In this document: positions 13,000-16,939 of the stretch, one piece after another
Layout of the letters: every line of letters starts with the position of its first letter
Position numbering within the stretch: the stretch's first letter is position 1
Origin: an uncultured Methanosarcinaceae archaeon
GTDB lineage: Archaea > Halobacteriota > Methanosarcinia > Methanosarcinales > Methanosarcinaceae
Assembly: GCA_963721455.1 (NCBI GenBank)
Contig: CAVRJG010000071.1
Location: forward strand, 1-40,495
Direction: 5' to 3'
Length of the DNA: 40,495 nucleotides
Notes under the pieces: generated by a model
Seen by the model: only the letters and a program-made list of their open reading frames with translations
The model's database searches: none
What the model was told of the DNA's origin: nothing
Position numbers and translations under genes: made by a program

Positions 13000-13896
13000 T
13001 CACATTATTGATGCCCCTGAAATCAGGACACCAGTAAAAAATCCCAGGATCACCCCGGAATTCAGGAAGGGAAGGCCTGCCTGCGGTTTTCCTCTCATTA
13101 CCAGGATCGAAAGTACTGCATGCCCTGCAAGGGTGCCCAATATGGCCCCGATTACGGGATATGAGATTCCTCCATTGCTTCGCATGAAAACGTTTGCCGA
13201 AACTACCAGCAGGGTAGGCATGACGGCATCTCCGAGGCCCATGAAAAAAGCTTCGCGCTTTTCTCCCTGTTTGAAGCTTTCCTGCAAGAAAGAATAGTTC
13301 AAGTGTTTTGGAATTACGAACAGAATGGGGAGCTTCAGATCCATTATTCCTTCGGCCATCACTATCATATGCTTTGTTTTGTATACCGAAATAGCATCAT
13401 AGACTGCAAGAAGTAACAGAAGCACTATTACAGGGACAACTGAAAGGGAAATCCCTAACAGGGCACTGACCCCGCCTGCAATGCAAACTCCCGCAATGTC
13501 AACTACGTACCATTCGGGATATTTATAAAGCAACACTGTTATTCCTGTAGAGAGCAGGACTGAGGCAATTGCTTCAAACCCTGAAAGAGATGGGAAGAGG
13601 GTAAACAGGGCGAAGAACACGTAATATAGAGTGCTTATTATGGCGAAGTATATAAAGAGGCTGATTATCCATTTCATATTTCTCTTTAATGCTATCAGGA
13701 CAAACAGGGTAAAAACCAGGATCATTATAATATAATATATGGAATTGGATACCTGGGTTGGGTCCTCAAAAGCCTGCATGTCATTAACTTCCATGGGCGC
13801 GGACAAAAATAGCGCAAGAACCTGCACTATCAGGATTAATCCTGCCATGGAAAGAATAGGTAAATAATCTTTAATTGATTGTTCACTGGAACTCAA
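13000..13896 (-). CDS. Presenilin-family intramembrane aspartyl protease (PSH)
   Basis: Multi-TM protein with YD, GLGD and PAL-like PQAGLP motifs. Confidence 0.9.
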   Translation of the reverse strand: MSSSEQSIKDYLPILSMAGLILIVQVLALFLSAPMEVNDMQAFEDPTQVSNSIYYIIMILVFTLFVLIALKRNMKWIISLFIYFAIISTLYYVFFALFTLFPSLSGFEAIASVLLSTGITVLLYKYPEWYVVDIAGVCIAGGVSALLGISLSVVPVIVLLLLLAVYDAISVYKTKHMIVMAEGIMDLKLPILFVIPKHLNYSFLQESFKQGEKREAFFMGLGDAVMPTLLVVSANVFMRSNGGISYPVIGAILGTLAGHAVLSILVMRGKPQAGLPFLNSGVILGFFTGVLISGASIM

Positions 13897-14280
13897 GTGC
13901 TAAACTCCTTAATTCTTGACAGTATGCCTTTTTTATTCCTTTATATATTTACTGTATTCTTTATCTCCGACTCCTTCTGAACTATTTATATAATTACCTT
14001 CACAGGAAAATATTTTTTTCTTTTTCCGCGTTTTTTTCTAAATAAAGAGTTTTCCTGCCAAATGCTTCAGGTATATACTCCCTGAGACACTACCCAACTT
14101 TTCTCAGGAGTGATATTAAGAAAGTAACGGAGCAAAAACATGCATAAATAATCTGTGCAAAAAATTATATATTATCTCTATATAAAAAAGACTCAGTTCC
14201 AAAATCTAGTGCATCGATTTCAAATTAGGGGGATAAAAATGGACTTTGAAATCAACACTTGTCAAAGAGTTTCCCATAAA

Positions 14281-14350
14281 AAACTGCAGATGGACACGGG
14301 TAAACACGAATTGAAACCATCTGTGTTCATCTGTGTTTATCCTGGGTTTA
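14281..14350. repeat. REP-like imperfect palindrome built from ~10-bp ACACAGAT/ATCTGTGT units
   Basis: AACTGCAGATGGACACGGGTAAACACG ... ATCTGTGTTCATCTGTGTTTATCCTGGGTTT. Confidence 0.5.
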
Positions 14351-14395
14351 TTGAGGATATATGGAATCGATGCACTAGTAAAAAAGGATGGATCG

Positions 14396-14623
14396 ATGGG
14401 ATATAGAGAGGGGGATGAACTTGTAATTAATAATGTGAAAATATCTCGCGATCTTACAAAGCAAAAAGATCAATATACAATTGCAATTACTTTTATCGCA
14501 GTTTCACTCATATCCCTTTTTAATTCTTTTGCAAGGCATCCTATTCTAAACAAAATGCTAACGGTTGGATTTATTTTAATGGTACTGTTGTCAATACGCA
14601 AATCTCGTCAAACGCAGACCTAA
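14396..14623 (+). CDS. Small hypothetical membrane protein (75 aa, 2 TM), probable island cargo
   Basis: ATG at 14396 after AGGA, two hydrophobic segments; ends 11 nt before repeat R1. Confidence 0.5.
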   Translation: MGYREGDELVINNVKISRDLTKQKDQYTIAITFIAVSLISLFNSFARHPILNKMLTVGFILMVLLSIRKSRQTQT

Positions 14624-14634
14624 GACAGATCGTT

Positions 14635-14688
14635 CATGTTCAAACATTACTGAATCAGAAGGCCATCGAAGCGCCCGGAGAAAATAAA
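14635..14688 (+). repeat. Gene-3'-end repeat R1 (HVQTLLNQKAIEAPGENK, truncated)
   Basis: Aligns with R2 and R3 at DNA and peptide level. Confidence 0.85.
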
Positions 14689-14871
14689 AGCTTACTTTTT
14701 TCTATAAAAAATCTAATAGTCCCTATCCTAAAAATAAGCTTTATAACGTTTTTAATTTTGTAATGAGCGTCTATAATTCTTCATATGTAGATAAACGGGT
14801 TTAATTAAAATAAACCCTTAAAAAGTATATTTCACAAAATAATAAAGTACAAAACCCAGGACATAAAGTAA

Positions 14872-15069
14872 TTCTCCAGCCGGAAGGCCAGAGCTGAAGA
14901 GCTGGATAAACACAATTCTACTTTGAATGGAGAGCGGGAGAAAGCGGAGAGGGATAAAGAGGACCTCAAAAATACCTATAACAATTACTTTTTACAGGTT
15001 CAAACGTTGATTAATCAGAAGGCTATAGAGGCACCTGGAGCAAAAAAGAAATGGTATAAATTTTGGTAA
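14872..15069 (+). pseudogene. 5'-truncated coiled-coil protein ending ...YNNYFLQVQTLINQKAIEAPGAKKKWYKFW* (DUF536-like tail); contains repeat R2 (14995-15069)
   Basis: Open frame after the stop at 14869-14871 with no ATG, charged heptad-like sequence and a basic/Trp C-terminal tail. Confidence 0.7.
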
Positions 15070-15305
15070 TGTATGGAAGGCCTGTTATCAGGAGCGGATT
15101 TTTTATTCTGAAAGCGTTGATATAGATGGCGAAGCAATATTAAATATTGTAAAGCACCTTGAATTTTAGTCACATTGGGCACTTAATAGTTTGTCGTCGA
15201 TGCCGATTGGTCTTAGATTGGACACCTAGAGCCAATCGGCATACCATTTTTCTCAAGATTGTTTTTGCTTTACTGTCTGATGCTAATTTCCACTTTATGA
15301 ATCCA

Positions 15306-15380
15306 CAGGTTCAAAAACTAATTAATCAGAAGGCTATAGAAGCGCCAGGGAATAAGAAGAAACGGTGGAAATTTTGGTAA
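15306..15380 (+). repeat. Gene-3'-end repeat R3 (QVQKLINQKAIEAPGNKKKRWKFW*)
   Basis: 75 nt, colinear with R2 without gaps; many differences are synonymous. Confidence 0.88.
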
Positions 15381-15502
15381 TTTGTCCTTTCTGTGCCATT
15401 TATCAGATGAGATATTCACAATGCCTGCGTGAATTTTAATACAATTGGGATATCCCAGGATCCCGGCCATTATCAGGAATGAATATACTAATTATATAGT
15501 CT

Positions 15503-15966
15503 TTAAATTGGTATCCCTTTTATAGTATCATAAATTATTATTTGACAATACCCGTATACATTAATGACTTCCTGCAGGTCCTCTTTAGTAGGGATACTCA
15601 TGTTATTTTTTAGCGGGCGCGCTTTGGTCCCTGATTGCGGCAATGTAGGAATCTCAATATCAAACGTTTGATAAAAGCTTTTGACTCCTGTTAAGTGACT
15701 CTTAACGGTCAGATGGGCGTTATCTCTTTCCTCTTGTAAATTCTTTCTAAATCCAATTAGATACTTTTTTATATTGCGCTGTCGCATCAGTTTACCGGAC
15801 TTTACCTCCTGCTCGGCTTCACTTAAAAGTTCATCTGGAGTTTTCCGGTCCATTCAGTAAAGTGTTTCATAGATAACAAATAATTCCTTTTCGTGTTCGG
15901 TCGCGGGTTCAGAGTGTCAAGCCACTCCGTAATTACCGGATCGTTCCTCAGGTCATCGATAATCAT
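15503..15966 (-). pseudogene. Tyrosine recombinase/integrase, frameshifted (~15843) and truncated before the catalytic domain
   Basis: NTKRNYL..MKHFTEWTGK/TPDELL..AE, TVKSHLTGVKSFY and IPTKEDLQEV are typical of the SAM-like core-binding domain and linker. No R-H-R-Y region is present. Confidence 0.8.
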
Positions 15967-16106
15967 AAAAAGCCTCAGTTCCAAGATATATTTACTTTTG
16001 GACTGATCCTTTAATGGAGGTATCTCCACATAATATTTTGAAATATGTTCTATCACGGAAATCGTGTGTACGCGGAGAATTTCTACAGATATTTTAGAGG
16101 TATACG

Positions 16107-16430
16107 ATGGAGACTAGAGATACAATATTTCTTGTTGTTATGGTTCTGTCATCCTTCCTTCTGTCCTTTGAGTGGCTTAAAAGGTTTGCATACAACCCTG
16201 CAAATCCCCTGATCATTCTTTCGGTTATGGTCCTAGTCGGAACATTAGCTGTTATGCTCATCTCTATTAACACTAAGCTTCAGGAGTTCGAAGATAAGAT
16301 GGAAGCAAAGGACCGTACCCTCAAGGCAAACATGGAGAGTACGGGAGTAAAAATCGAAGAACGGATGAATGAATTATCAAGCAAAGTTGATAATGCTATT
16401 TACGAATTCAACCGCAGAAAATACCATTAA
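16107..16430 (+). CDS. Hypothetical protein, 2 TM plus coiled coil
   Basis: GAGGT RBS, two hydrophobic helices, charged C-terminus. Confidence 0.75.
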   Translation: METRDTIFLVVMVLSSFLLSFEWLKRFAYNPANPLIILSVMVLVGTLAVMLISINTKLQEFEDKMEAKDRTLKANMESTGVKIEERMNELSSKVDNAIYEFNRRKYH

Positions 16431-16939
16431 ATTCTATTTCTAATCCTATTTTTTATATAAAAACGAAATTTTCAATATTTTGTCCTTGAGAAAGGTTGTG
16501 GTTCGAATATCCAAATTTTTCTAACAATTAAATATGATTTTTAGTTTAAGAATATATAACAGTTTAGCAGTACGTCCTTTATAATGCAGGAATCTTCTAT
16601 ATAGACAGAATAAATTAATAAAAAAGTGAATCCACATTTTTCCAAACAGATATTCTTATTCTACGTGGTTTTGAATATAAATTTATTCTCATTTCTCCTC
16701 AGTTTAATCGTAATATATGTTAATTTTTTCAATTTAATTCATACCCGATTAGATATTTCGGGTGCAGGCTCCATTATTTAGTAAAGTATTTATATTGGTT
16801 CCTCTGTACTACAGAGGAATATCTGAAATTAAAGCCATTATTAAAATAATAGATCAGATATTATGTATCGCAAGTTATTATTACTCAGAGTTAGTATAAT
16901 TTGATTACTTGTGTAAACAGGTAAAGAAGGAAAGCTAAT

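Follow-up and report, generated by a model that had tools for sequence, protein, structure and literature searches.

Phage 21 and e14, both in icd, and elements that integrate in tRNA genes reportedly insert at a gene's 3' end and bring with them a substitute for the end they displace. In shufflons, recombination takes place in the 3' part of a gene and inverts its variable C-terminal segments. A review of archaeal tyrosine recombinases (PMC8371274) places attachment (att) sites within protein-coding genes as well and mentions tandem integration at one locus, and clusters of attC sites without an integrase, the CALINs, are reported also for Archaea (bioRxiv 10.1101/2022.02.06.479319 / PMC9668308); an account of SSV-type 'suicidal' integrases (PMC7253208) describes an N-terminal integrase fragment that is left in the chromosome. 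The locus described here lies on a contig of an uncultured Methanosarcinaceae archaeon (CAVRJG010000071.1 of assembly GCA_963721455.1; contig C71 of genome G000 in our comparison), whose 40,495 nucleotides form the window to which all coordinates without a contig or locus name refer. It holds three direct copies of the 3' end of one protein-coding gene, here called tails, next to the remnant of a tyrosine integrase. Such tails form arrays across the genus, many of them begin at a fixed junction with unrelated flanks, and those within one array have independent origins; the 1.8-kb segment that contains those of the window is present or absent from one genome to another. The explanation we tentatively favour, at a little less than an even chance, is stacking from repeated site-specific insertion of the Campbell type, with displacement of the tail at ..CTG|CAGGTTCAAAC.

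The three copies form one 77-nt family in the output of a repeat finder (R1, 14634-14710; R2, 14994-15070; R3, 15305-15381), spaced by 360 and 311 nt; with R2 as reference, R1 is 62% and R3 81% identical. In the alignment the likeness sets in abruptly on the 5' side, at CA(G/T)GTTCAAA, and ends in R2 and R3 with TGGTAA, that is, with the stop codon. R1 translates as ..HVQTLLNQKAIEAPGENKS.. and has a degenerate end, while R2 (..NNYFLQVQTLINQKAIEAPGAKKKWYKFW, then stop) and R3 (..QVQKLINQKAIEAPGNKKKRWKFW, then stop) give the coding consensus ..QVQ(T/K)LINQKAIEAPGxKKKxWKFW before the stop. Direct reading of the codons shows five synonymous differences and one non-synonymous between R2 and R3, and seven and two, respectively, between R1 and R2. 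Upstream coiled-coil coding sequence is kept by R2 only (14872..15069, + strand), which represents the last 65 codons of the parent gene: a stop-to-stop frame from 14872 with coiled coil, tail and stop, the N-terminal two thirds being absent. A search with this frame finds itself at E 3e-40 and frames of 150-250 aa in relatives at 60-72% identity. R1 and R3 are tail-only copies on the same strand. The former (14635..14687) is cut at CATGTTCAAAC, lacks both the KKxWWKFW end and the stop, and has its nhmmer homology start at -24; the latter (15306..15380) is cut at CAGGTTCAAAA, has its frame and stop intact, and starts at -19. An earlier note, made from the letters of the sequence, had described three same-strand copies of a gene's 3' end at 14635, 14995 and 15306, with coiled-coil coding upstream of R2 alone and a palindrome in R2; repeat finder, alignment and translations agree that the copies are real, translation bears out the second point, and the palindrome, TGATTAATCA, is present.

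The 236 nt between R2 and R3 (15070..15305, + strand) are conserved as well and are the natural 3' flank of the parent gene. They include an 11-bp hairpin (15200-15210 / 15232-15242) followed by a T run, kept in all seven aligned copies, and the whole of it (15200-15251) is probably the terminator of the parent gene. No match to a known RNA family of Rfam was found within 13800-16600 at E<=1.

The parent family is multi-copy and restricted to the genus, with proteins of about 200-250 aa made up of an N-terminus resembling the ribbon-helix-helix (RHH) fold, a coiled coil and the conserved tail ..QVQTLINQKAIEAPGxKKxWWKFW; the tail corresponds to the last 75 nt or so, 25 codons, and it is the C-terminal 24 residues that are conserved. 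Three parent proteins that were inspected (201, 205 and 244 aa) begin with a conserved MPEEKRKINxWIP.., continue with a coiled coil that is variable and rich in repeats, and finish with the tail. With one and the same query, members of the family turned up in 13 of 18 other genomes of the genus and in none of 12 genomes from the order's other genera; each species was represented in the comparison by a single genome. A large protein collection holds 235 members at E<=0.001, none with an informative name. There are about 16 tail copies in G000, three each on contigs C3, C52, C67 and C71 and single ones on C19, C34, C46 and C50; every one is a fragment, and no tail-bearing frame in this genome exceeds 90 aa. 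In relatives, frames of 150-250 aa end in the tail. A degenerate tail pattern gives 15 matches in G000 and is matched in 37 of 59 genomes of the genus, against none in all 59 for the reversed control pattern, and the window tails are therefore more than a product of chance.

Of particular interest is the point at which the copies begin. In G000, a whole genome and so an unbiased set, CAGGTTCAAAC (CATG.. in R1) is the exact point at which at least four tail-only copies (C52a, C67b, R1 and R3) adjoin unrelated DNA on their upstream side. For the wider comparison, 136 non-redundant tail copies from G000 and from loci of relatives were compared with a DNA profile built from 24 gene-linked copies; breakpoints are taken as local alignment starts, and 36 copies were checked by eye. 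Homology starts at -20 to -18 in 26 of the 136, no more than 3 nt from CAGGTTCAAAC (in which the C of CAGG is numbered -18), so that the constant 5' breakpoint named in the earlier note as a thing to look for is found in G000 and genus-wide alike. Extension upstream by at least 107 nt is seen in 42 copies; some 30 begin somewhere from -102 to -26, roughly one at each position and never more than two, and about 30 others start further in than the hot spot. Sorted by 5' extent the copies fall into classes F (43), P (28), A (36) and B (29). The 36 that start between -25 and -15 comprise seven divergent full-length paralogues, in which the coiled coil differs, and 29 copies with non-coding flanks, and these flanks form 13 BLAST clusters, or about 8-11 lineages. 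The other end behaves quite differently: 133 of the 136 profile hits reach the end of the model (position >=134 of 147) and three end early, none of them at the junction. Among these hits there is no gene head that ends at the junction, and the only separate head fragment in G000 belongs to the copy on C50 that is split by a miniature inverted-repeat transposable element (MITE); this tail-bearing fragment (C50, 43560-43845), one of the three hits that end early, is interrupted by a MITE, about 290 nt long, that has perfect terminal inverted repeats of 17 nt and has left a short target duplication.

The 29 tails of class B, in which the first 5-18 nt are missing, are often preceded by a spacer with the start TGTATGGAAGGCC, and many have a conserved upstream flank of their own (AAAAATTGAACAAACTTAT..); examples are L067, L068, L069, L070, L078 and L079 and, in G000, C52:183111 and C67:1136.

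Two explanations fare badly at this point. Ordinary pseudogene debris, left by random deletions in a junk-rich region, would fit the fragmentary state of all the G000 copies and the abundance of insertion sequence (IS) elements and MITEs nearby, but it offers no reason for a fixed junction, for a single tail orientation in each array or for the lack of heads ending at the junction, and we regard it as extremely improbable. Polar copying from the 3' end, whether by reverse transcription or by rolling-circle one-ended transfer, predicts just such a shared 3' end with differing 5' extents as the four classes display, with only three of 136 hits lacking the tail. It is nevertheless very unlikely: no poly-A, target duplication or conserved element end is seen at the inspected copies, tandem same-strand stacking and a sharp hot spot would be atypical of it, and no reverse transcriptase or Rep is linked to the tails.

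Common descent combined with homologous recombination is a serious rival, although on balance we hold it to be unlikely. By this account one ancient truncation, or a few, made a unit of junction and tail, which duplication then spread together with its neighbours and which ectopic recombination or gene conversion in the 75-nt tail shuffled, so that most copies may have inherited the junction. Comparison of the 45-nt flanks beside the junction shows that three groups are related (the FHF cluster of 10 copies, cluster 2 with 5 copies, and copy a10), with scores of 15-17 against a null of 6.6 +/- 1.5, and conservation starts at the same point in the seven divergent full-length paralogues. The R2-spacer-R3 module, moreover, has stayed together in four genomes (G000, G060, G032 and G056; at least 10 copies), and tail-spacer-tail blocks can be aligned between genomes at 72-91% identity; the seven module copies that were aligned have four different kinds of upstream neighbour. 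Against descent stand about eight further flank lineages which in the same 45-nt score test show background similarity only and yet join within a few nt of the same point. Nor would non-coding decay from one ancestor be expected to place 61 of the 109 differences among tail-only copies at third codon positions, as described below; no local conversion is seen, and the absence of heads at the junction is left unexplained.

Across the genus 18 same-strand tandem arrays were mapped, with spacers that vary from about 230 nt to 2.6 kb and units of 0.3-2.6 kb, in line with the tandem arrays and variable spacers that the earlier note had asked after. The tails within an array are scarcely closer to one another (mean identity 70.4%) than to those of other arrays (68.0%), and for only 5 of 51 array tails does the nearest relative lie in the same array, which rules out local slippage, tandem duplication and local conversion as their source. 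A codon tally restricted to 18 nt outside the ascertainment pattern, a tally of the 45-nt core having been set aside as search-biased, gives differences at codon positions 1/2/3 of 29/19/61 for tail-only copies (synonymous to non-synonymous, 46:32) and of 34/15/131 for gene-linked copies (105:33). By eye, the frame is intact in seven of 29 tail-only copies and broken by stops or frameshifts in the other 22. Since third-position differences prevail and same-array nearest relatives are so few, the tail-only copies come from different coding alleles and decayed afterwards, as had been proposed from the window's synonymous differences, where diverged functional alleles were taken as the source. 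Swapping of C-termini, which was offered as an alternative at that time, does not fit: the tails are the conserved part and have a single orientation within an array. A tail in G047 that had the look of a fusion to another frame was rejected as such, there being no open reading frame (ORF) of at least 80 aa.

Several of the spacers hold genes for secreted or surface proteins on the opposite strand (LTD, DUF4352, PKD, NHL+PKD and YNCE+PKD), which start 100-380 nt from the junction of the next tail, at a distance that varies. In G060 (L066) an intact gene of 159 aa heads an array of three tail-only copies. The placing of the spacer genes raises the question of whether the tail is simply retained beside surface-protein genes as a cis element, an operator, terminator or the like, with deletions tolerated up to its edge. 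The frequency and position of these opposite-strand genes speak for it, as does the RHH-like N-terminus of the parent protein, suggested by the secondary-structure pattern of a model and by two source labels. Random deletion ends, however, would spread over a range and not fall within 3 nt, the tail-only copies are for the most part (22 of 29) broken and drifting in sequence, and the distances to neighbouring genes vary; we give this idea only a slim chance.

Repeated site-specific insertion fits these observations better, because a fixed junction, the absence of heads at the junction and tails of independent origin are what 3'-end integration with a replacement end would leave. In a resident gene, or in a unit inserted earlier, the tail would be the target of a small circular unit that has a copy of its own; after recombination the new copy would stand in the proximal place and the older one further downstream, behind the DNA of the unit. 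The recombinase would probably act in trans. Several things weigh against this explanation and should be set beside it. Because the tail pattern served to choose the loci of relatives, counts outside G000 are biased towards tails. The largest flank group, 16 of the 29 copies, shares about 20 nt beside the junction, and many copies therefore share the junction by descent. The tail is conserved at the level of codons and not as a DNA site, with no conserved dyad seen beyond CCTG|CAGG, which occurs in one subfamily. Gene-linked copies do not always lie at the 5' end of an array: they stand first in nine of 18 arrays and occupy seven of 33 later places. No recombinase is linked to the arrays; at 20 array loci, 75 ORFs near the arrays include a single intact integrase, which lies 4 kb away from a tail. 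An intact unit, with its two ends and an enzyme, was not found, no circle was seen among the contigs, and the R2-spacer-R3 module has been inherited as a block. In G046:C77, where an integrase lies near one end of a 24.5-kb interval between two tails, no clear element emerged. At the C3 array of G000 synteny with five relatives ends at C3:20012, with no match to anything beyond.

The earlier note had gone further and read the locus as an integron-like cassette system. Recurrent insertion inside a coding sequence with displacement of the tail is the part of that reading that is supported; linkage to the neighbouring integrase clade and membership of the integrons are not. The stronger form, a native integron-like system whose site would be the last 75 nt of a protein-coding gene and whose small units, many with a gene for a secreted or surface protein, would be inserted, excised and reshuffled at ..CTG|CAGGTTCAAAC by a recombinase in trans, with tails swapped synonymously and the old ones left in place behind, strikes us as possible but doubtful.

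The enzyme proposed in the earlier note was that of the neighbouring integrase clade, with the tail as its att site. About 175 nt beyond R3, on the - strand, lies the tyrosine integrase remnant (15557..15966), which covers aa 10-141 of about 427, has one frameshift near 15841 and lacks the catalytic domain; its start codon abuts the right direct repeat of the segment described below. Two minus-strand ORFs (15823-16056 and 15503-15853) match aa 10-141 of the 427-aa tyrosine recombinase of a relative at 60-76% identity, and the decayed integrase that had been noticed converging on the array is thus a truncated tyrosine integrase. The intact relative (L016:1363-2643) matches PF00589 (Phage_integrase) with E 1.1e-11 and 45.3 bits, above the cut-off of 27.1, and the window fragments match no Pfam family at E<=1. 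On the integron integrase model TIGR02249 the intact homologue scores 23.3 bits (cut-off 265), and on the archaeal XerA model 57.8 bits (cut-off 220).

The family of the remnant is present in 48 of 59 genomes of the genus. A tail lies within 10 kb on either side of one of 20 integrase homologues, most of which have open frames of 410-473 aa, and that tail is a divergent variant; a family hidden Markov model (HMM) built from 120 proteins found none at these 20 loci. Integrase stumps occur at the window's orthologous locus in five of 20 genomes. One of these loci, in G066, has a tail beside the same integrase remnant with a different upstream flank joined at the same point, and in G003 there is only a 7-residue tail end (RKKWWEF, E 0.11) at a contig edge near the stump. 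Intact homologues elsewhere directly follow the N-terminal stumps of other genes, a UPF0758/RadC-like gene (118 aa; L028:316-2016, G032) and a TctA gene (74 aa; L025:9585-11110, G056), and for that reason the clade may, judging by these sequences, integrate inside coding sequences. At these two homologues no direct repeat of at least 14 nt was found between the left flank and the 40-52 kb to the right, and 40 kb of sequence did not contain the remainder of the TctA gene. In G057 a complete TctA gene stands 140 nt after a tail array (L070).

In both G000 and G066 tail and remnant point towards each other across about 175-270 nt of the orthologous locus, and intact homologues in G032 and G056 come straight after N-terminal gene stumps; these are the points in favour of the neighbouring clade as the enzyme. 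They have to be set against arrays without integrases, against the one divergent tail or none among 20 integrase loci, and against the structure of the integrase-bearing segment, which has end repeats of its own with the tails inside; the association can be traced to one ancestral locus. The linkage to this clade that the earlier note proposed is accordingly not supported, and its version of the enzyme and site seems to us rather improbable.

The strain-variable segment itself is about 1.8 kb long (14190-16005) and is bounded by an imperfect 24-nt direct repeat (21/24), the left copy at 14185..14208 and the right at 15967..15990, both members of a repeat family. Synteny with relatives is lost at 14189 and found again from 16006 on. 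The segment contains, from left to right, a MITE, a doubtful ORF, R1, R2, the conserved spacer, R3 and the integrase stump. Twenty orthologous loci were compared, over the stretch from the membrane-protein gene (13000-13896) to the flap-endonuclease gene (17613). In G032 and G060, the nearest two relatives, and also in G017 and G056, the alignment stops at 14189 and resumes at 16006, and 41-103 nt of AT-rich repeats stand in place of the 1.8 kb. Empty-site forms (L045, L046, L049 and L058) have tandem repeats of the AAAAATAGAA type, about 2 to 6 units, in numbers that vary between species. The 24-nt repeat is a candidate att remnant of a decayed element. Since the ends of the segment carry this repeat of their own, the window tails are internal cargo or debris of that element and not its borders.

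The MITE (14206..14378, 173 nt) has 20-nt terminal inverted repeats, and a BLAST search with it in G000 returned 15 rows; among the 12 rows listed, 10 span nearly the whole element at 83-100% identity. The depth of metagenome contigs is about tenfold higher over it (bin 14249-14409) in three runs, and a contig of run X4 skips from 14227 to 14358. The small ORF that had been taken for a membrane-protein gene (14333..14623, + strand, 96 codons) does end 11 nt before R1, as stated, but it starts inside the MITE and has no Pfam match, so that its status as a gene is doubtful; the unrelated flank to which R1 is joined is its 3' part.

Metagenome contigs, accepted at a likeness of at least 88%, add a hint of variation within the species. 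The joint 14189->16009 is found in contigs of runs X1 and X2, and one X1 contig (depth 6.8, shorter side of 57 letters) joins 14637 to 14998 with 8 shared letters. These joints come from single short contigs, and no run contains more than 0.24 of the sampled words. The second joint is weak evidence, being a single contig whose origin may lie in a relative or at a paralogous locus; where contigs covered 14410-16019 thinly or not at all, as in some runs, this was not counted as evidence. Of the strain-variable spacers expected from the earlier note there is therefore a hint of strain-level variation and nothing firmer.

Set beside the described systems, the arrays come closest to elements that target the 3' ends of genes, and 3'-end integration with a replacement end is an already known kind of pattern. 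Shared features are a duplicated 3' segment with a fixed 5' edge, found here as direct repeats of the gene's 3' segment, differences that are mostly synonymous, and older ends displaced downstream. The units here differ in being only 0.3-2.6 kb long and in having surface-protein cargo and no integrase, where an integrase would be expected inside the unit beside an att copy; in addition, the target is a multi-copy family and not a single housekeeping gene, and no intact element was found between two tails. With integrons and CALINs the arrays have in common short units on the same strand, one conserved site and often one gene per unit, shuffling of units between arrays and the absence of a recombinase gene from most arrays. 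The site here, however, appears from its sequence to be codon-conserved coding sequence and not a folded attC, and the cargo lies on the opposite strand with 100-380 nt of upstream DNA of its own. Membership of the integrons is rejected on each count tested, by an integrase far from IntI (23.3 versus 265 bits), by a codon-conserved site in place of attC and by cargo that does not consist of promoterless cassettes in the same orientation. SSV-type integration resembles the locus in leaving an N-terminal integrase fragment in the chromosome, but here the break in the gene is inside the segment and not at its border, and a tblastn search of G000 with the 427-aa homologue found no C-terminal partner, only aa 10-141 and a near-full, separate paralogue on C38; a split integrase of that type was rejected. 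Shufflons too recombine inside the 3' part of a gene, whereas here the C-terminal segment is constant and the array copies are direct repeats.

The parent family extends beyond the arrays. One paralogue of 230-307 aa, with the tail ..NQKQI(L/V)APGxKKxWWK(L/F)W, has a fixed place beside CHAD/CYTH and PPK2 genes in several species (L085, L092 and L094), which suggests a housekeeping member of the family; other paralogues are found among IS elements and surface-protein genes. Apart from coiled coils the parent protein has no match in Pfam or NCBIfam, RHH models included, and a profile search of the PDB gave coiled-coil matches only, so that assignment to the RHH class by sequence profile failed. 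An AlphaFold2 model (pLDDT 84.5) predicts an extended stretch at 1-13, helices at 14-20 and 28-41 and long helices at 54-130 and 134-189, and two homologues bear the source label 'Arc/MetJ-type RHH'; the modelled N-terminus is compatible with a ribbon-helix-helix fold, though not proof of one. On C34 of G000 (1074-2759) a ParA-like gene has beside it a related coiled-coil gene (..HIQTLIQENSRLNFRLLPE..) and a copy of the tail with a frameshift, and this variant tail (..KPWWKFW) also occurs 4 kb from the intact integrase of G056. C19 has a high-G+C stretch, at about 132.9-143.5 kb, with ORFs mirrored around roughly 138.5 kb. On its two sides the same host genes and a tail copy (132032 + / 144558 -) stand in mirror image, and the stretch has the look of a palindromic chimera made in assembly or of foreign DNA.

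A narrow search of the literature, limited to main texts, found no description of these arrays. If the insertion account is right, methanogenic archaea would have a route by which surface-protein genes are gathered and reshuffled at a site inside a coding sequence, and such sites would escape programs that search for attC hairpins or for att sites linked to tRNA genes. The same account would explain the near-constant C-terminal 24 residues in an otherwise fast-evolving family. Even if descent and homologous recombination made the arrays, most genomes of the genus have in the tails a scattered 75-nt homology by which variable regions can be recognised, useful both for annotation and for reading the plasticity of these genomes.

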